From the NCBI GenBank assembly GCA_001802865.1, contig MHAF01000172.1:2157-66156 (forward strand): 64,000 nt of DNA, in the 5' to 3' direction. Under the pieces are notes generated by a model that was not told the origin of the DNA, did no database searches, and saw only the letters and a program-made list of their open reading frames with translations. A program made the translations under genes and the position numbers. Source of the stretch: Ignavibacteria bacterium RBG_16_34_14 (lineage in GTDB: Bacteria > Bacteroidota > Ignavibacteria > Ignavibacteriales > Ignavibacteriaceae). Of this stretch, positions 12,020-21,845 are shown in pieces (the stretch's first letter is position 1; each line of letters begins with the position of its first letter).

Positions 12020-13775
12020 AATGCTTAATGTTGAGCAGATGAAATGGTGGGGATGGGGAGGTGAAAATATTGAATTTAATATGGATGATAAACCTGAACT
12101 TTGGCCATATATTAAAGATATCGTAGGAATTGAAGGCGAAGTTAAATTTACTCCCTCATTTAAATTTGATGATATCGAACTTACTCAGCAAACATTAAAC
12201 GATAAGTTTATTAATCATGTAAAATCTTTTATTGATCCTGAACGATTTAAATTTGATAAAAAAGAAAGACTAATTCATTCTTATGGAAAAAGTTTTAGAG
12301 ACCTTTGGAGAATAAGAAACGGTATTGTAAACGCTTCTCCTGATTGCGTGATTTATCCTTTATCTGAAAATGAAATATTAAACGTAATAAAAGCCGCTCT
12401 GGATTACGATGTTGTGATGATTCCTTTCGGTGCAGGTTCAAATATTGCAGGATGCCTTGAAGCCAATAATGGCAGTGGGAGAATGATTGTTTCTCTTGAT
12501 ATGAAGCTTATGGATAAAGTTATCAGTGTTGATAAGCAATCAAATACCGCAAGGATACAAGCCGGTGCCTTAGGTCCTATGCTGGAAAAACAGCTTAATT
12601 CTCATGGTTTTACTCTTGGTCATTTCCCGGATTCATTTGAATATTCTACCATTGGCGGATGGATTGCAACAAGGTCTGCAGGAATGCAGAGCGATAAATA
12701 CGGTAAGATTGAAGATATGGTCCTCTCACTCCGAATGGTAACTCCAACAGGTACAATAGTTACACGTACTGTTCCTAAGTCTTCAAACGGAATTGATGTT
12801 AACCATATTTGTATAGGAAGCGAAGGAACTCTTGGTGTTATTACCGAAGCAGTAATGCAAGTACATAAACTTCCTAAATATAGAGTTCCCTACGGATATC
12901 TTTTCCCGGATTTTGAAAGCGGAGTTAATGCAGTCTATGAATGTGTTGAAAAATATTGTGCCCCTATAGTAACAAGACTGAATGATCCTGGTAAAACAGC
13001 TCTTTCTTTTGCATACAAATCAAAATCTTCACCTCTTAAATCTTTACTTGGTAAAGTTGTTAAATCTTATTTAAAGAATATTAATAAGTTTGATTTCGAT
13101 AAAGTTTGCCTTTTGCTGACTGTATTTGAAGGTAATAAAGAAAACTTTTCTGAAATGAAAAGGAAAGTCAATAAAATTTACAAAAAGCATGGTGCCTTTA
13201 ACCTTGGAACAGAACCAGGTAAAGCTTTTGAAAAAGGCAAATATGATTTCCCTTACCTGCGGGATTATGTAATGGATAGAAATGTAATGGCTGATGTGAG
13301 TGAGACTTCAACTGTATGGAGTAATCTTCTTCCTTTATACTATTCAACAATGGAATCAATTGATAAAGCAATGAAGTACCGCTTTAGCGGGATTAAAAAA
13401 GGTTTTTTGGGATGCCATATAAGTCATACTTATCATACCGGCGCAAGCTTATATTTTACTTTTGGTTGCCAACAGGTTCCAGGATATGAGCTTGAACAAT
13501 ATCTTCTTATAAAAAAAGCCGCCGAAGATGCTTTTATAAAGGGTGGGGCTACATTGTCTCACCATCATGCTGTTGGTTTTGAGCATATGCCCTGGATTAA
13601 AGATGATATTTCTGAAACTGGAATAAAAGCGGTGAGAGGATTAAAATATTCTCTTGATCCAAATAATATTATGAATCCTGATAAAATTATTCCTCCACTT
13701 GAGAAACCTTTTAACTGGGGTTTAGAAAAGAAGGATTTAGAGAAACTTGAAAATGGATACAATGTTCTTAAATAA
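12006..13775 (+). CDS. FAD-linked oxidase, alkyldihydroxyacetonephosphate synthase (AGPS)-like
   Basis: The N-terminal MKWWGWGGE recalls the AGPS KWNGWGY motif. The PCMH FAD domain shows PFGAGSNIAG and FPDSFEYSTIGGWIATRSAGMQSDKYGKIEDMV. LSHHHAVG near the C-terminus recalls the AGPS HHHGVG motif. Confidence 0.7.
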   Translation: MPELRMLNVEQMKWWGWGGENIEFNMDDKPELWPYIKDIVGIEGEVKFTPSFKFDDIELTQQTLNDKFINHVKSFIDPERFKFDKKERLIHSYGKSFRDLWRIRNGIVNASPDCVIYPLSENEILNVIKAALDYDVVMIPFGAGSNIAGCLEANNGSGRMIVSLDMKLMDKVISVDKQSNTARIQAGALGPMLEKQLNSHGFTLGHFPDSFEYSTIGGWIATRSAGMQSDKYGKIEDMVLSLRMVTPTGTIVTRTVPKSSNGIDVNHICIGSEGTLGVITEAVMQVHKLPKYRVPYGYLFPDFESGVNAVYECVEKYCAPIVTRLNDPGKTALSFAYKSKSSPLKSLLGKVVKSYLKNINKFDFDKVCLLLTVFEGNKENFSEMKRKVNKIYKKHGAFNLGTEPGKAFEKGKYDFPYLRDYVMDRNVMADVSETSTVWSNLLPLYYSTMESIDKAMKYRFSGIKKGFLGCHISHTYHTGASLYFTFGCQQVPGYELEQYLLIKKAAEDAFIKGGATLSHHHAVGFEHMPWIKDDISETGIKAVRGLKYSLDPNNIMNPDKIIPPLEKPFNWGLEKKDLEKLENGYNVLK

Positions 13776-14589
13776 GAATATTGTTATTACCGGGGCATCT
13801 TCAGGACTTGGTGCCGCACTCGCAAAAGAACTTGCTTCACATAAACCAAATCTTATTCTCTTTTCCAGGAATATTGATAAGCTTAAAGAAGCTGCAAAAT
13901 TCTGTAATGAAAAGGGAGCTAATGTAATTTCCGTTCAGGGAGATGTAACTAAGCTTGAAGATTGTAAAAGATTAGTTGAAACAACAATAAATAATTTTGG
14001 CTCTGTTGATCATCTTGTTCTTAATGCTGGTATAAGCATGTGGGCTAAGTTTGATGAGGTAACCGACCTTTCTTTATTCCAAAAATTAATTGAAACAAAT
14101 TACCTGAGTGCTGTTCGCTTAGTTCATCTTTTCCTTCCATATCTAAAAAAAAGTAAAGGTCTAATAACTGCTATCTCATCTATCCAGGGCGAAATTGCCG
14201 TACCTTATCATTCAGGATATGTTGCATCCAAGCATGCTTTAACCGGATTTTTAAATACGTTAAGAATGGAGCTTTCCGCCAAAGGCGGATCCGTTGGAAA
14301 AGATAAGGGTGTGGATGTTATGCTTGTTAAACCTCACTGGCTCAGAGGGACCGACCTAAGAAAAAATGCTTTTGATAAAAATGGAAATAAGATTGGTGAA
14401 ACAAAGAAAGAGCACAGCAAAGAATCAATTAGTCTCCAGGAATGCAGCAGAAAAATTCTTAAAGGAATGGTAAACAGAAAAAGAGAGTTAGTAATTCCTG
14501 GAAAATTAAAATTGTTAACAATACTGAGCTTGCTGTTGCCTAATTTAGCAGAGAAGATTGTTTTAGGGAAGCTAAATGAACAAGAATGA
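13747..14589 (+). CDS. Short-chain dehydrogenase/reductase with hydrophobic C-terminal tail (acyl/alkyl-DHAP reductase candidate)
   Basis: TGASSGLG, NAG and YxxxK (YVASKHAL) motifs are present. The track start at 13747 is TTG, with ATG alternatives at 13753 and 13762. The gene overlaps the end of the AGPS-like gene. Confidence 0.8.
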   Translation: MKMDTMFLNKNIVITGASSGLGAALAKELASHKPNLILFSRNIDKLKEAAKFCNEKGANVISVQGDVTKLEDCKRLVETTINNFGSVDHLVLNAGISMWAKFDEVTDLSLFQKLIETNYLSAVRLVHLFLPYLKKSKGLITAISSIQGEIAVPYHSGYVASKHALTGFLNTLRMELSAKGGSVGKDKGVDVMLVKPHWLRGTDLRKNAFDKNGNKIGETKKEHSKESISLQECSRKILKGMVNRKRELVIPGKLKLLTILSLLLPNLAEKIVLGKLNEQE

Positions 14590-14674
14590 GATTGACTCTT
14601 CAAATTAAAAACCATCCAAGGGATAATTACTATCTTGTCAAATATTGTGGTATGGTTGACTTATTTAATGTAAA

Positions 14675-15835
14675 TTGCGTCAGTTAAATGACGGATTTTA
14701 TATGAATATAGTCAGAGTAGCTCAAGATCTCATTACTAAAAAAATCAAACCCGGGAAAGTAATTGTTATTCTTGGTGCGAGAAGAGTCGGAAAAACCTTT
14801 CTCCTTAAAGAATATGTTAAAGAAATTAAAGAAAAATATATTTTCTGGAACGGAGAAGATTTCGCAGTTCAGGAATTATTGAAACGAAGGAGTGTTCAGA
14901 ACTATAGAAATGTCCTTGGGAATGCTGAGTTACTCATTATTGATGAAGCTCAAAAAGTTCCAGAGATCGGGAGTATATTAAAACTTTTAGTTGATTCATT
15001 TGAGGAACTGAAAATTATTGTAACAGGCTCATCGGCATTTGATATAACAAATTTGACTGGAGAACCGCTAACAGGAAGAAAGTATGAAATTCAATTATTC
15101 CCGGTTTCTGAAAATGAGTATTCGCAATTTGAAAAACCTGAAGAAAAAAAAGATAACCTAAGACAACGACTAATTTATGGTAATATGCCCGAATTGAGTA
15201 ATTATCAAGATCAAAAAGATAAAAGAGAATATCTAAGGGATTTGATCAATTCTTATTTGCTTAAGGATATACTTGTATTAGAAAATATCAGAAACTCTGC
15301 AAAGATATTCGACCTCCTTAAACTGATCGCATTTCAAACTGGGAATGAAGTTTCACTGCAGGAAATCGGAAGTCAGCTATCAATATCTAAAAATACAGTT
15401 GAAAAATACTTGGACCTTCTTACAAAAGTTTTTATAATATACAGATTGAATGGCTTTAGTAGAAATTTAAGGAAAGAAATAGTTAAAAATTCAAAATGGT
15501 ATTTTTATGATAACGGAGTCAGGAATGGAATCATTGCAAACTTCAATCAGCTCGGTTTAAGAGATGATGTTGGACTGCTATGGGAAAATTATATGCTCGG
15601 TGAAAGAATTAAACACCAGCATTATTCCGGGATGACAGTTAATAATTATTTCTGGAGAACCTACGACCAGCAGGAAATTGATCTTGTTGAAGAACGGGAT
15701 GGAAAATTATTTGTTTATGAGCTTAAATGGAAACAGGGTAAAACTAAAATACCAGTCGCCTGGCAAAATGCTTATCCCGATTCTCAATTCAAAGTAATTA
15801 CACAAGAAAATTATTATGAATGGTTAACGGAATAA
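14675..15835 (+). CDS. AAA+ ATPase with DUF4143-type C-terminal domain (COG1373-like)
   Basis: Walker A is GARRVGKT and Walker B is LLIIDEAQ. The C-terminal region reads NYFWRTYDQQEIDLVEE...YELKW. A more likely ATG start is at 14702. Confidence 0.75.
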   Translation: MRQLNDGFYMNIVRVAQDLITKKIKPGKVIVILGARRVGKTFLLKEYVKEIKEKYIFWNGEDFAVQELLKRRSVQNYRNVLGNAELLIIDEAQKVPEIGSILKLLVDSFEELKIIVTGSSAFDITNLTGEPLTGRKYEIQLFPVSENEYSQFEKPEEKKDNLRQRLIYGNMPELSNYQDQKDKREYLRDLINSYLLKDILVLENIRNSAKIFDLLKLIAFQTGNEVSLQEIGSQLSISKNTVEKYLDLLTKVFIIYRLNGFSRNLRKEIVKNSKWYFYDNGVRNGIIANFNQLGLRDDVGLLWENYMLGERIKHQHYSGMTVNNYFWRTYDQQEIDLVEERDGKLFVYELKWKQGKTKIPVAWQNAYPDSQFKVITQENYYEWLTE

Positions 15836-15838
15836 TGC

Positions 15839-16014
15839 ATAGCAAAGAATCAATTAATCTTGAAGAATGCAGCAGAAAAATTATAAAAGGAATGGTAAAC
15901 CGAAAAAGAGAGCTGGTTATACCAGAAAAATTAAAACTCCTAACACTGCTGAATTTACTTTTTCCTAGTTTAGCTGAGAAGATTGTTATGGGGAAAGTTA
16001 AAGAACAGGAGTAA
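15839..16014 (+). pseudogene. Relic second copy of the SDR gene 3' end (last ~58 codons)
   Basis: HSKESINLEECSRKIIKGMVNRKRELVIPEKLKLLTLLNLLFPSLAEKIVMGKVKEQE* aligns with the SDR C-terminus HSKESISLQECSRKILKGMVNRKRELVIPGKLKLLTILSLLLPNLAEKIVLGKLNEQE*. It begins immediately after the ATPase stop codon. Confidence 0.8.
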
Positions 16015-16074
16015 TATTATCTTTTCAATTCCTAAATGAAAAATTAAATAAATGCCAACTAAAGGAAGGTTTGA

Positions 16075-17545
16075 TTAAACTTGTGCTGCTATGAGAGTTG
16101 TATTCTGATAGAAGTAGGATTTTTGTTTTTCTTTAAGAGGTGATGATTTAGGTAATTGATAGAATTTCATCAATGATACTACTGACTTACTAGTAGTTCC
16201 ATTGAAACTGAAAAAATCATTAGAAAGTACAATTTTTTTAGCTTCTTCAAGCTGTTGGTTTGTGAGATTTTTTAATTGGTTACGCCACTTATTAGTCAAG
16301 TTTATATTATCATAATGGTTACGCCACAAAATAAATGGCTCAGGCATCATAAGTATTTCAAAGTATTCTTCTATATTTTTTCCAAAAGCTCTCTCAAAGA
16401 AAGATGTTCCTGGCATTCCTATTCCTCTTGTAACATTTAAAACACATTGTACTGCCCTTAAATATTTTCTATTCCAATGTTTGCCAATATATTTTCGATC
16501 AAGAGATTCATATCCATATAGTGGGATAAATTTCATTGGGAAGGAAAAATTATTTGAATTTAATTCTTTATGTAAATCAACATTAATTTTTAAACGTTCC
16601 CAGAGATGTTCAGGTTTATCCACATAATTGAAGAGTATATAATTTGATAATTCCTTAACCCCCATATTTGTCTGCCAATCTGATTGCGTTTTCATACTTT
16701 TCTTTTAAAGAAATATGATCAAAAGCAATTCGCATTGGTCTTATTGGAATTTGACTTAATAATTTCATTTTCTCTTCATCAACATATCTGCAATCTATAC
16801 CTTGATTGAAGTCCACATATCTATTTTTAGGTGTTTTGAGACGATATTTTTCCACATAATAATTTAATTCATCTTTGGATTCAAGAATCAATTCTTTCTT
16901 TATATTCTCTTTTTTATTAATTCCGTATAAAGTCAATAAAGATAAGTAATTTAACTTATCTTCTTTTTTAGTAATTCTGTTAAAAATATATTCGTTTAAA
17001 TATTCATAAATTCTTTTCTCATATCTGCTAATATTCAATTGATCTTTTTCATTCTTTATATAATTGCAAAGAATATCAAATTTATTTGGCGGAGTAAATT
17101 TAGAGCCGACACCAAATCCCATTTCAACAATTTCTTCAATTATCTTGGGAAATAATGGTGAGCCTAAAACATTATTATCCATCAGGATTAAATCTTTTCG
17201 ATCACCATGTTTTTTCTTTATTAGGTCGAGCTGCTGATTTATTGATATTTTATCTTTGTAAATCGGTTCAAGTTTAGGTACAGCGCAAAAGCTACATGTT
17301 CTTGTACAACCTCGTGTCATATATGTTAAATATCCGGTGTCGAGTGGATATTTATGATCAATGGTTTCGAGAATGCTATAATCTGGTGTTAACTCATCAA
17401 TATTTATTTCATTATCATCCAGAATACCAGGTTTATCTAATAAGCCAGTGATAATATTTTTTCCTACTATTAAATCTGCCTCTTTTGCGATTATATCCGG
17501 TATAATGATGCTGCAACACCTCCGTGATATATTATAGTTGTCCAA
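16075..17545 (-). pseudogene. Large radical SAM enzyme (~489 aa if repaired), split by a frameshift in a G5 run
   Basis: The CX3CX2C motif is GCTRTCSFCAVP. ORFs 16655..17545 and 16075..16695 join seamlessly if one G of the run at 16659-16663 is removed: ...AIRLADKYG-VKELSNYILFNYVDKPE... Confidence 0.75.
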
Positions 17546-17581
17546 ATTATTTAGAGAATAGGCAAGTATTGAAATAAAATT

Positions 17582-18463
17582 TTATATGCGATAGTCTAAA
17601 GAAAGAATGATAAAAGGAATATTAAAAATATTTTTTATGTATGGAAATTCGGTTTTTGCTTTATTAAAATCCATCATTCCAGAATATTTAGATCTAATTT
17701 CCATCACAGTTTTATAAGCATTACTACTACCAAGCACACATAAATGTCTTGCAAATTTTGTTGAAGGAACAATTAGGCCACCTAGCTTAATTAAACCAGA
17801 ATTATAGGACATAACAAACTTTACTATATCCTGATAATATGTTCTTGCATTGCCAAACTCAGCTTCCAATTGAAAATATTCTTTTCTATAATCGCATTTT
17901 AGTTTAATCCTATTGTCATTAACAACCTTTTGTTCGTTGAGCCATCCTGAGTTAGAGAGTTGTTCTTTTAATCTTAGATTATAATGCATCTGTCTTTTGT
18001 CTTCTTCATAAGGGATATTTCTTACGGCTTGGATAATTTCTAAAATTCTTTGATCATATGACAATATACTCTTATCGAGCTTATGAATTATTATATCAGA
18101 GAAGAACAAGTTATTATCTGATGATATTGGGAATCCTTTGATTAGAAAGTTGTCATTATTGAGTATTTGCACTTCAATAAATTCATTGAGAGCTGGTTTT
18201 TCTTTTTGGAAGGTTTCTTTAAATGTATTTTTGAGCCAGCTACTAAAAGTATTCCCAAATTTCCCATCATATCTAATCTGTAAATGTCCGGGTGAGTTAT
18301 TTAAGCGACATAACCAACCAATAGAAGTTTGATTATCTCCAAAAACCAAATTGATTTTTCTTCTATTGCCCTTCTCGGGAACAGTCAAATTAGAATACAT
18401 TTTTTTAGGTATCGTGAATCCATATCTAAATGTAGATTTACCTATAATATGTTTAAAAGTCAC
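17582..18463 (-). CDS. Restriction-endonuclease-like protein: N-terminal barrel-like DNA-binding-type domain plus C-terminal BglII/BamHI-like PD-(D/E)XK domain (tentative)
   Basis: D191-X8-E200-A-E202 (KCDYRKEYFQLEAEFGN) followed by K215 and GGLIVP has the same D-X8-E-X-(E/Q) spacing as BglII. The N-terminal FRYGFTIPKKMYSNL resembles B3/EcoRII-N or AbrB-like strands. The GTG start overlaps the upstream stop (GTGA). Confidence 0.45.
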   Translation of the reverse strand: MTFKHIIGKSTFRYGFTIPKKMYSNLTVPEKGNRRKINLVFGDNQTSIGWLCRLNNSPGHLQIRYDGKFGNTFSSWLKNTFKETFQKEKPALNEFIEVQILNNDNFLIKGFPISSDNNLFFSDIIIHKLDKSILSYDQRILEIIQAVRNIPYEEDKRQMHYNLRLKEQLSNSGWLNEQKVVNDNRIKLKCDYRKEYFQLEAEFGNARTYYQDIVKFVMSYNSGLIKLGGLIVPSTKFARHLCVLGSSNAYKTVMEIRSKYSGMMDFNKAKTEFPYIKNIFNIPFIILSLDYRI

Positions 18464-19500
18464 GATACTTTCCTATAATATTTTTTAAGTTTATCCCCGC
18501 TATCATCATAACAACAAGTTACATTTCGCTCTTGCAAAATTGCAGCAGATATTTCATCTATTAAATCTGTTTCAAAACCATCTTGCTTTTCTTTTTCGGT
18601 AACTGCTATTTTCTCAATTTTAATTATCCCTTCAAGTGGTCCCCGTGTATATTTTTTTTCTCTTATTCTTAAATACCATGCACCAATTACTGTTTTAAAT
18701 TTCCTCCCACTTTGTGGTTCATATCTATAAACAGGTGTTCTCTCACCATATTTTAATGCAGTCAAATAACTTCCAATTTCTTTGCTCTTTGTTTTTAAAA
18801 TACCTTGCAAATTTGGATTAAAAGATTTTGAAACCCCAATTACATTATGAAATATATATTCTTGCTCTAATTTAATGTTTGTGTATTGAAGTGAACCATC
18901 AATCATTAAGATTTCACCAGTATTCAATAAATTCGATGTTACCATTTTGTCAATTAAAACTATTTCTTCATCTAACATTTCTTTCTGAATTTTTGCTATA
19001 GCAAGATTTTCAGGTGGCCTTTGCATATTTGTTTGATGTTTATATTCAACAACTCTTTCAACTCTAATATTATTCTTAACAGTTTTATTTATTTCATTCC
19101 TAATATTTTCAAATTCACCACCAGTTCTATCTGGTAAAGCAATTATATTAAATTTTATTAAGTGCAGATTTTTTATTGACTTATTTTCTCGTTTACATAC
19201 CGCAGTTCCAATTTGTCCTGCTACAATTGGTAAATATTTCCCATCAGTTGATGCAAAATCAACAACTTTATAAGTACGCCTTGAACCATCAAGAAAATAT
19301 TTAAATAAAGATATATCCGTATAGAACTTTGTAATTTTTCTTTTCTCTGGAACTTTATTTGTTTCAAATATTTTTGAAGTGTTAAACTTTTCATCCTTAT
19401 CTTGGTACTCGTCCGGGTTTATATCGTCTAAATGAAGTTTGTTGGAAGGGAAACACTTACCCCCACTAAATTTTTCAACAACTTTAAGAATCGTTCCCAT
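18460..19500 (-). CDS. NurA-like (RNase H-fold) nuclease candidate with two DGS motifs (tentative)
   Basis: FLDGSRR (D71) and LMIDGSLQ (D201) flank an acidic helix (QKEMLDEE), as in NurA-family nucleases. No ATPase/HerA partner is adjacent. Confidence 0.35.
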   Translation of the reverse strand: MGTILKVVEKFSGGKCFPSNKLHLDDINPDEYQDKDEKFNTSKIFETNKVPEKRKITKFYTDISLFKYFLDGSRRTYKVVDFASTDGKYLPIVAGQIGTAVCKRENKSIKNLHLIKFNIIALPDRTGGEFENIRNEINKTVKNNIRVERVVEYKHQTNMQRPPENLAIAKIQKEMLDEEIVLIDKMVTSNLLNTGEILMIDGSLQYTNIKLEQEYIFHNVIGVSKSFNPNLQGILKTKSKEIGSYLTALKYGERTPVYRYEPQSGRKFKTVIGAWYLRIREKKYTRGPLEGIIKIEKIAVTEKEKQDGFETDLIDEISAAILQERNVTCCYDDSGDKLKKYYRKVS

Positions 19501-20784: not shown

Positions 20785-21210
20785 TTATTGTAATGATAAA
20801 TTTATGGAGGATTCGGCATAATCATCTGCACTTTCATAAATCCGGACAGATACTTTATTGATATTTTTTGGCAGGCTTATCTTCTTTATCTCATTAAGAA
20901 AATATTTACATATATTTTCTACTGTTGATTGAAATTCAACAATCACCATTTTTGATTTCATCTTTTCAAGGAATGAGATTATCTCTTTATCTTGGTTATA
21001 TACCATAAAAGCATGATCCAGTTTTTCAATTATTGGATTAACTATTTTCTTTACATCATAATAATCCATCACCATTCCCGATTCAGCCACATCACCTTCA
21101 AGTTCAATAATCATTTTATAAGAATGTCCATGAATATTTTTGCATTTATCAAAATGTTCCGGTAAACGATGCCCCATTTCCCAATGGAATTCTTTTGCAA
21201 TCTTCATCAA
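20785..21210 (-). CDS. queD: 6-carboxy-5,6,7,8-tetrahydropterin synthase
   Basis: FHWEMGHRLPEH...CKNIHGHSYK is the zinc and catalytic motif of the QueD/PTPS family. The gene overlaps queE by 4 nt. Confidence 0.85.
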   Translation of the reverse strand: MMKIAKEFHWEMGHRLPEHFDKCKNIHGHSYKMIIELEGDVAESGMVMDYYDVKKIVNPIIEKLDHAFMVYNQDKEIISFLEKMKSKMVIVEFQSTVENICKYFLNEIKKISLPKNINKVSVRIYESADDYAESSINLSLQ

Positions 21211-21845
21211 ACACCTTTAGCAGTTGGAACCCAGATAAACTTATGCATCTGAAGTTGGAATCTTGCATTTAATTTATCCTCAAGTATCCACTCGACTAAT
21301 GTTACTGGTTCAAGTTCACCAAATACAACTGAGAAAAGAATGCTGCATTTGTTTGTGAGATTATATTTTTCAATTAACTCTTTAGACCAATCATAATCTT
21401 CCCTGTTTCCAATTACAAACTTTATTTCATCGGTTGGTTTTATAAAATCAATATTGTCGTAAAGATTTTTTTTCAGCATTCCACTTGAAGGGCATTTAAG
21501 ATCCATTATAATCATTACTCTCTGATCAACACTTTTTATGGAAAGACTTCCACCCGTTTCCAGCATAACTTTGTAACCTTCATCAGATAATCTTTTCAAC
21601 AGGTCAATACATTCATCCTGGACAAGAGGTTCCCCCCCTGTTACTTCCACCAATTTACAATCATACTTTTTTACCTCATCAATTATTTGCTCAATTGTAT
21701 AATCTTTTCCCTCATAAAAAGCATATTCGGTATCGCAATAAGTACAACGGAGATTACAGTAAGTTAATCGTACAAAAATACATGGTAATCCGGCTTTGGA
21801 ACTTTCTCCCTGAATGGAGAAATATATTTCGTTTATTTTAAGCAC
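21207..21845 (-). CDS. queE: 7-carboxy-7-deazaguanine synthase (radical SAM)
   Basis: INEIYFSIQGESSKAGLPCIFVRLTYCNLRCTYCDTEY is the QueE signature. The start codon is GTG. Confidence 0.85.
   Translation of the reverse strand: MLKINEIYFSIQGESSKAGLPCIFVRLTYCNLRCTYCDTEYAFYEGKDYTIEQIIDEVKKYDCKLVEVTGGEPLVQDECIDLLKRLSDEGYKVMLETGGSLSIKSVDQRVMIIMDLKCPSSGMLKKNLYDNIDFIKPTDEIKFVIGNREDYDWSKELIEKYNLTNKCSILFSVVFGELEPVTLVEWILEDKLNARFQLQMHKFIWVPTAKGV

Follow-up and report, generated by a model that had tools for sequence, protein, structure and literature searches.

What keeps two nuclease genes and a gene for a radical S-adenosylmethionine (SAM) enzyme together in a small cassette that encodes no DNA methyltransferase? 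This question is raised by positions 16075–19500 of a 64,000-nucleotide stretch of DNA, here called the window, from Ignavibacteria bacterium RBG_16_34_14 (contig MHAF01000172.1). An original prediction, made from the sequence alone, had taken this trio of genes for an undescribed restriction-like module in which the radical SAM enzyme, instead of a methyltransferase, marks the host's own DNA or makes an antiviral product. Our comparison with related loci shows that the cassette is a derivative, generated by replacement and deletion in an ancestor of some Ignavibacteriaceae, of a larger operon that encodes the nuclease NurA, the ATPase HerA, a GHKL-type ATPase and a radical SAM enzyme. Self-marking is disfavoured, with the radical SAM gene being broken in the window as well as in a second lineage of the trio (L014/15; loci are referred to by L numbers) and reduced to remnants beside intact gene-2 homologues elsewhere. 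On balance, it seems probable that the parent operon, which is widespread and undescribed, is a DNA-targeting conflict, i.e. defence, system, to which the radical SAM enzyme is an accessory.

Derivation of the trio by replacement and deletion

As predicted, the cassette consists of three co-oriented genes, all on the minus strand, and their coordinates are confirmed by the list of open reading frames (ORFs) and the sequence. Gene 1 (346 amino acids; 18460–19500) encodes a predicted NurA-family nuclease with an RNase-H fold, gene 2 (293 amino acids; 17582–18463) a putative B3-like domain joined to a BamHI/BglII-type nuclease, and gene 3 (16075–17545) a radical SAM enzyme, whose reading frame is split in two by an extra G. 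Genes 1 and 2 are coupled by a GTGA at 18460–18463, in which the TGA stop codon of gene 1 overlaps the GTG start codon of gene 2. The gap of 36 nucleotides claimed between genes 2 and 3 holds only if the TTG at 17545 is the start codon; the true start of gene 3 is uncertain.

By blastn, window DNA is homologous to the four-gene loci of Ignavibacteria over 19500–18515 and 17531–16126, whereas the intervening 983 nucleotides that carry gene 2 (17532–18514, minus strand) have no counterpart in these loci, which have approximately 5.1 kb in this place (comparison with L001, L002, L094 and L099, gene tables and a survey with hidden Markov models (HMMs)). The DNA replaced comprises HerA, the GHKL ATPase, extra genes and radical SAM codons 1 to ~155; NurA also lost its conserved C-terminal tail. 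That neither an adjacent HerA-type ATPase nor a clear B12 domain is present had been seen correctly in the sequence; like the NurA tail, both are missing because this event removed them. At the left junction (18460–18514, minus strand; blastn breakpoints and alignments), which holds the replaced NurA tail, gene 1 ceases to be homologous to full-length NurA genes from four-gene loci at ~18515, after ...ERNVTC, and in the sister trio loci after ...DRWAN.

The same trio occurs elsewhere, in one lineage represented by L004–6 and L095 and in another represented by L014/15, on Ignavibacteriaceae-type contigs with different neighbours, where it is collinear with the window at ~75% nucleotide identity. 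The left junction and the GTGA overlap are identical in the window, L004/L095 and L014/15, and the trio therefore goes back to a single ancestral event. Among these three lineages, pairwise dN/dS ratios (NG86), which are approximate, amount to 0.06 for gene 1, 0.08–0.13 for gene 2 and 0.05–0.07 for the radical SAM gene. Thus, purifying selection maintained the trio over most of the time since it arose, and the trio is more than a scar. Both nuclease genes are intact in all three lineages. The radical SAM gene is intact only in L004/L095, being frameshifted in the window and having lost its first ~150 codons, including the cluster motif, in L014/15.

A comparable but independent event is found in a Thiomargarita metagenome-assembled genome (MAG; L102, CAYFOB010000221, 5300–5450), where a clean deletion of ~3.9 kb joins NurA (...GRWAN) to codon ~140 of the radical SAM gene, without gene 2. 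At this junction, gggcaaatca is joined to attaaatttgcaaa; a GCAA(A/T)T microhomology is present in the parental-type loci L100 and L111, and the left breakpoint lies at most 2 nucleotides from that of the Ignavibacteriaceae trio. Repeats that mediate the deletions were sought, and only this microhomology at the L102 junction was found, with nothing comparable for the trio. Across such events, losses go together: the radical SAM enzyme loses its N-terminal domain whenever the upstream GHKL gene is lost, i.e. in four cases (the trio, L007, L102 and L155), and loss of the NurA tail accompanies that of HerA in two independent cases, the trio and L102, and is confined to loci that have lost HerA. 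These joint losses represent testable predictions on the surfaces by which the partners contact each other.

The parent operon and its distribution

A scan for gene 1 gave 419 matches among 185,579 species-representative genomes, and the best 80 loci were surveyed with our own HMMs. HerA is present in ~70 of these 80 loci, and 53 have the exact order NurA–HerA–GHKL–radical SAM, a number that rises to ~66 when duplicated or split genes are counted; most of the remaining loci are cut by contig ends. In the four-gene order, the gene-1 homologue (364–371 amino acids) is followed by a protein of 546–553 amino acids, a HATPase_c_3 ATPase and, after an additional gene in some loci, the radical SAM gene (620–650 amino acids). 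The 546-amino-acid protein is HerA, with its profile matching Deinococcus radiodurans HerA at 2.4e-55, and the GHKL profile matches the N-domains of HtpG/Hsp90 at ~1e-12. In Clostridia-type loci, the fourth gene likewise encodes a radical SAM enzyme. Some canonical operons contain an additional GHKL ATPase or a gene of unknown function (332–439 amino acids), placed after the radical SAM gene or else between it and the first GHKL gene (L002, 5288–7953; L001, 6664–7983; downstream in L108, L130 and L162).

The operon is distributed over many bacterial phyla and a few archaea, its hosts including Bacteroidota, Bacillota, Spirochaetota, Desulfobacterota, Beggiatoaceae, Verrucomicrobiota, Chloroflexota, Methanomethylovorans and Woesearchaeota. 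Among the cultured hosts are Clostridium guangxiense, Clostridium mobile, Parabacteroides chinchillae DSM 29073, Carboxylicivirga mesophila JCM 18290 and Thermincola potens. The nearest four-gene relative of window gene 1 (87% at the amino acid level) lies in an Ignavibacteria MAG (L099, CAWHVB010000008, 10000–18050), in which every gene is broken into several ORFs; this could reflect decay or homopolymer errors of long-read assembly.

NCBIfam has no model for any of the four proteins, and PADLOC gives only weak mad8, HerA, TmtA and MzaB matches for the parent operon and no system model. Neither the four-gene operon nor the trio is described in Pfam, NCBIfam, PADLOC-DB v2.0.0 or the full-text literature, subscription-only papers lying outside this search. 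Within the scope of this search, the trio has the undescribed composition that had been claimed for it, but this is not an independent composition, since it derives from the larger operon. Several loci have defence-related or mobile neighbours: L007 lies beside PglZ/BrxL, L002 and L003 beside integrases and HigB/HicB, and PADLOC and Pfam scans of 148 flanking ORFs found DRT/AbiP2, a type IV restriction endonuclease, AbiEi, SoFic and PDC candidates in the flanks of canonical loci. The toxin–antitoxin-like genes next to the cassette in the window fit into this picture.

The two nucleases

The NurA-like nature of gene 1 had been proposed from two DGS motifs, FLDGS (residues 69–73) and MIDGSL (residues 199–204), and is borne out at the level of the predicted fold. 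Foldseek searches with an AlphaFold2 model of gene 1 (pLDDT 77) retrieved the NurA structures 7f6d_G (3.1e-12), TM1739 (1zup; 1.1e-10) and Sulfolobus NurA (2ygk; 3.8e-7), and nothing else significant; moreover, a profile of 43 sequences of the family matches the D. radiodurans NurA chain 7f6d_H (E=5.7e-4). The Pfam NurA model does not detect gene 1, which, judged by model and profile, we regard as a NurA homologue by fold. The catalytic set D71/E179/D201/K225 (codons 19288–19290, 18964–18966, 18898–18900 and 18826–18828) is intact in the window and invariant across 43 gene-1 homologues; by order and motif, rather than by superposition, these residues would correspond to Sulfolobus D58/E116/D133/K202.

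In the window copy, the conserved tail HLYPIYLTE..LK.SF.SD..FLNIF (...RWANHLYPIYLTE...) has been swapped for a short new tail: the replacement begins after residue 329, and the last 17 residues are not homologous to the family. In Sulfolobus NurA, the active-site Tyr298 and the HerA-binding I295/F300 patch lie in a loop and the final helix of the RNase H fold (PMC3326311). By position and conservation, again without superposition, the lost tail is probably the counterpart of the Sulfolobus I295–M307 segment.

The gene-1 family is small, with 644 clusters at 50% identity among 1.84 billion representatives. A tblastn search with a gene-1 homologue gave no match in the PLSDB plasmids and two weak matches in a phage collection, and there is thus no evidence for plasmid or phage carriage of the family. 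An unannotated 8.9-kb 'Bacteriophage sp.' contig from human faeces (MT836743.1, 7329–8264) encodes a gene-1 homologue with 35% identity over 82%; this contig may be a misfiled bacterial contig that bears the operon.

Gene 2, which had been predicted to encode a BglII-like nuclease, matches Pfam Endonuc-BglII (PF09195) with 39.9 bits (E=4.8e-10), above the curated cut-off of 26. Its motif D191-X8-E200-X-E202 (codons 17891–17893, 17864–17866 and 17858–17860) is invariant in 17 gene-2 homologues. The AlphaFold2 model (pLDDT 80) has two domains. For the C-terminal PD-(D/E)XK domain (residues ~150–293; 17585–18016, minus strand), Foldseek returned OkrAI (1.7e-5), BamHI (3e-5) and BglII (7e-4). The N-terminal domain (residues ~1–127; 18083–18463, minus strand) is undetected by any sequence model and matches, with modest E-values, B3-like pseudobarrels, i.e. 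LlaJI.R1-N (6c5d; 2.4e-3), several plant B3 domains and BfiI-C (3zi5; 0.019), in agreement with the DNA-binding barrel that had been suggested. On the basis of these models, the gene 2 product is predicted to be a BamHI/OkrAI/BglII-type nuclease with an N-terminal B3-like DNA-binding barrel.

The radical SAM enzyme

Gene 3 had been called a radical SAM enzyme of ~489 amino acids belonging to no recognised family. It indeed has no curated model, and the length applies only after repair of a run of G residues. The raw sequence has two ORFs, one for the 5' part (296 amino acids; 16655–17545, minus strand) and one, in another frame, for the 3' part (206 amino acids; 16075–16695, minus strand), and removal of one G from the G5 run at 16659–16663 (minus strand) gives a single 489-amino-acid protein. 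At this site, relatives encode KYG(V/I)K (AAA TAT GGT GTx AAA), and removal of the G restores KYGVKELSNYILFNY as in all relatives. The radical SAM motif region GCTRTCSFCAVP lies at 17276–17311, with a CxxxCxxC at 17285–17308 that is invariant in the family.

The protein aligns only from residue ~155 of its homologues of 620–650 amino acids, without the first ~155 residues of the family, and it is 80–83% identical to residues ~155–620 of homologues with 620–634 amino acids. A relic of the last strand of the lost N-terminal domain, GGVAASL (17503–17523, minus strand; sequence, DNA and protein alignments), is out of frame with the downstream ORF owing to a deletion of one nucleotide. We also considered that gene 3 is a chimera with a 5' part from a foreign gene-2-linked copy; this was ruled out by sliding-window identity, which is closest to local full-length forms throughout.

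Against Pfam Radical_SAM (PF04055), gene 3 scores 26.1 bits, under the cut-off of 29.5. A search of the PDB with the radical SAM profile gave just a marginal RimO match (E=0.96), and the nearest matches of the family, all weak, are families of the B12-binding type (BchE, a ladderane enzyme and MJ_0865), with the B12-binding domain PF02310 itself not being detected even in full-length relatives. Gene 3 would thus appear to belong to a radical SAM family that is without a curated model.

Gene 2 and the radical SAM gene beyond the trio

Gene 2 was also surveyed in its own right, in 51 non-redundant clusters from metagenomes, 32 of which have at least 1 kb of downstream DNA. Its sole strongly recurrent neighbour is a radical SAM gene of the gene 3 family, found in 13 of the 32 loci, always directly downstream and on the same strand; the remaining 19 lack it. 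This link between gene 2 and the radical SAM gene across loci is real. A methyltransferase paired with gene 2 was found in no locus examined, nor is one recurrent among the neighbours of the 51 clusters. Beside intact gene-2 homologues, the radical SAM gene is reduced to remnants of 103–272 amino acids in ~6 of 14 clusters. The short radical SAM genes beside close gene-2 relatives are polyphyletic, each being nearest to full-length forms of a different clade (80–83% for the window, 69% for L007, 48% for L021), and distant gene-2-linked copies form a clade of their own. In some of the loci that have both gene 2 and the radical SAM gene, a GHKL gene comes next, and the vicinity encodes a SIR2_2 protein, a ParB_N-like protein, a ResIII/SNF2 helicase or an integrase.

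Some gene-2 loci are parts of larger assemblies. In L007 (1–8497), genes for a nucleotidyltransferase, TumE, PglZ and BrxL, i.e. a BREX-type locus, are immediately preceded by a HerA-like gene (513 amino acids), gene 2 and a short radical SAM gene. Together with gene 2, a short radical SAM gene and a GHKL ATPase, L074 (1895–12950) contains a SIR2_2 protein (1035 amino acids), a helicase of the ResIII/DEAD type, a protein with a methyltransferase fold and an integrase; in L082 and L086, gene 2 and a short radical SAM gene are accompanied by a helicase and a protein of 932 amino acids; and L042 is another larger island, with a distant gene-2 homologue. The islands of L074, L042, L082 and L086 may represent a second type of system built on the gene 2–radical SAM pair.

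Possible functions of the parent operon and the trio

The patchy occurrence of the parent operon, and the abundance of mobile and defence genes around it, fit our reading of it as a conflict system. If it targets DNA, HerA–NurA would be the ATP-driven DNA-degrading effector, and the GHKL ATPase and the radical SAM enzyme, with its B12-domain-like N-terminus in the parent operon, might serve as sensor, regulator or modifier. In the trio, the B3–BglII nuclease would provide DNA recognition and cleavage without a motor, standing in for the ATPase-driven part, with the truncated NurA as a putative HerA-independent partner. The nucleases outlive the radical SAM enzyme in several lineages, and the latter is therefore unlikely to be their obligatory self-protection partner and would rather be an accessory. 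In the window genome, the cassette would work, if at all, as a two-nuclease module.

Several points weigh against this interpretation. Since HerA–NurA repairs DNA in archaea and Deinococcus, the parent operon might have a role other than defence. Pattern-based scans supplied the loci, the best 80 from each being kept, genes were assigned by our own HMMs, and the defence-island context is descriptive, with flank scans giving family counts and not an enrichment statistic. Synonymous divergence is saturated (dS >1.5), which is why the dN/dS ratios are approximate. As for the window copy itself, its frameshift could be an assembly error in a MAG, and the trio of this genome would then be intact; where the truncated radical SAM gene starts is uncertain; and the truncated NurA may be without the active-site tyrosine and hence inactive.

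To our knowledge, the effectors of HerA-scaffolded defence systems have so far been Sir2 or simple nucleases. Should the parent operon prove to be an immune system, it would bring an Hsp90-like ATPase and radical SAM chemistry to HerA-scaffolded defence, and the four-gene form, the HerA-less trio, the NurA–radical SAM arrangement of L102 (a fusion) and the gene 2–radical SAM–GHKL loci would form a natural series of reduced variants showing which parts are separable. Of the two, the parent operon deserves more attention than the cassette, and the window copy, with its broken radical SAM gene, tells least among the members.

It is possible, if doubtful, that the window contains a reduced form of an undescribed, phylogenetically broad immune system, in which the DNA-degrading HerA–NurA motor acts together with an Hsp90-like ATPase and a B12-type radical SAM enzyme, and in which the B3–BglII nuclease with the short radical SAM enzyme forms a second, interchangeable module. 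This would be the first multigene defence family around radical SAM chemistry that acts on, or signals about, DNA.

Gene 2 could also be a selfish or independently mobile nuclease gene that has landed repeatedly just upstream of the radical SAM core and wrecked the operon, leaving the trio as a scar in which only gene 2 matters. Such behaviour would fit the polyphyly of the truncated radical SAM genes beside gene 2, the radical SAM and GHKL remnants of varied extent around intact gene-2 copies, and gene 2 itself, which is often solitary and never has a paired methyltransferase. We consider it unlikely, however, as gene 1 and the truncated radical SAM gene have dN/dS ratios as low as that of gene 2 across trio lineages that are ~25% diverged in nucleotides, the GTGA coupling of genes 1 and 2 is conserved, and a deep clade of loci with gene 2 and a short radical SAM gene (plus a GHKL gene in some) looks stable. 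No repeats, integrase or target site define a mobile unit, and L102 has the same kind of deletion without gene 2.

There is little to recommend the autonomous restriction-like system initially envisaged, in which the two nucleases would attack DNA that the radical SAM enzyme has not marked, or that enzyme would make an antiviral product. The two nuclease folds and the radical SAM enzyme are confirmed, a methyltransferase is absent, gene 2 is linked to the radical SAM gene across diverse loci, and all three genes have been under purifying selection. However, a nuclease that needs a radical SAM enzyme for self-protection could not survive its loss, and this gene is inactivated in the window and in L014/15, is decaying in several other loci next to gene-2 homologues that are intact and catalytically conserved, and is altogether missing from the 19 gene-2 loci mentioned above. 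Moreover, the radical SAM enzyme derives from an operon where its partners are ATPases and not the gene 2 nuclease.

That the parent operon serves DNA repair or maintenance, with HerA–NurA resecting ends, the radical SAM enzyme reversing a lesion—for which spore photoproduct lyase is a precedent—and the cassette being a decaying repair locus, would accord with the match of the HerA profile to D. radiodurans HerA and of gene 1 to its NurA partner, but is quite improbable in view of the patchy distribution of the 419 matches across distant phyla, the small size of the gene-1 family, the heterogeneous neighbourhoods rich in mobile and defence genes with no adjacent Mre11/Rad50, and the ease with which the operon is deleted or replaced.

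Relation to known systems

All components of the trio and its parent operon fall into known fold families, and there are already defence systems with HerA as scaffold. With the HerA–NurA end-resection complex of Sulfolobus, Pyrococcus and D. radiodurans (PDB 7F6D, 2YGK), the gene 1 product shares the RNase-H-like NurA fold and the D-E-D-K set, and HerA is the next gene in its relatives. In contrast to that complex, the window has no HerA and its NurA no C-terminal segment matching Sulfolobus Y298 and the HerA patch, as far as the inferred mapping goes; the parent operon, for its part, includes a GHKL ATPase along with a radical SAM enzyme and has no Mre11/Rad50. Sir2–HerA, DUF4297–HerA (with HerA of the PDB 8XAU type) and MADS mad8 likewise pair a HerA-family ATPase with an effector enzyme in variable islands, and HerA of the related loci weakly matches the PADLOC mad8 (1e-7) and HerA models. 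Unlike these anti-phage systems, the parent operon has NurA as its putative effector, includes two more enzymes (GHKL and radical SAM) and matches no PADLOC system; the window copy has no HerA at all.

Gene 2 resembles the type II enzymes BglII, BamHI, OkrAI and BstYI in its predicted catalytic core and its D-X8-E-X-E motif, but differs from them in having no cognate methyltransferase in the loci examined, an extra N-terminal B3-like domain and a radical SAM gene as its usual neighbour. The predicted pseudobarrel fold of its N-terminal ~125 residues is that of the B3-like domains of EcoRII-, BfiI- and LlaJI.R1-type enzymes; here it is fused to a BglII-type catalytic domain, as opposed to a PLD domain in BfiI and an McrB-like GTPase in LlaJI.

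Prokaryotic viperins (pVips) and other radical SAM conflict enzymes are similar in that a radical SAM enzyme occurs in a likely conflict locus. Gene 3, however, has no similarity to the PADLOC viperin models, just as its sequence had suggested, its nearest matches are weak and of the B12 type, and its family is always found in a multigene operon. Finally, the third gene of the parent operon shares the HATPase_c_3 domain of GHKL/MORC-type ATPases such as MzaB and Tiamat TmtA, with weak matches to both; it differs in being most like the N-domains of Hsp90/HtpG and in being paired with HerA–NurA and a radical SAM enzyme, and it is gone from the window.

Base composition and surroundings of the cassette

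Pfam and PADLOC scans and the ORF list revealed no methyltransferase, helicase or defence model at the cassette, in keeping with the original prediction, and the window as a whole contains no cognate methyltransferase for gene 2. In PADLOC-DB v2.0.0, the cassette is unassigned, gene 2 giving a weak REase_II match (0.0015) and gene 1 and the radical SAM enzyme none. A second copy of HerA or of the GHKL gene was sought across the 64-kb window and not found, nor is there a HerA-like ORF anywhere in it. In a scan for promoters and terminators, sites were no more numerous than in shuffled sequence. The G+C content of the cassette is 29.1% as compared with 33.2% for the whole window (same-size windows: standard deviation 1.9%, minimum 28.9%) and 34.9% for AGPS, and other stretches of the window are equally low. 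The low G+C content that had been noted is thus real but modest, and far smaller a dip than the hand count had suggested.

The flanks are as first described, with the 3'-end relic of a short-chain dehydrogenase/reductase (SDR) gene and an ATPase gene on one side and toxin–antitoxin-like genes on the other, i.e. an adh_short SDR gene, an AAA_14/DUF4143 ATPase gene, the SDR relic, a MazE-like gene and a gene for a DUF6036/AbiEii-like nucleotidyltransferase. In the SDR region (13747–16028), the 3' end of the SDR gene (14412–14603) recurs as the relic (15837–16028; 192 nucleotides, 80% nucleotide identity), with the ATPase gene (14675–15835) in between. By its sequence, this relic appears too diverged for a fresh target-site duplication and may have arrived with the island from a related genome. 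Just past the toxin–antitoxin-like genes, at 20785–21845, are genes for QueD (PTPS) and for QueE, which is another radical SAM enzyme, unrelated to that of the cassette; both resemble ordinary genes for queuosine precursors and seem not to belong to the cassette.

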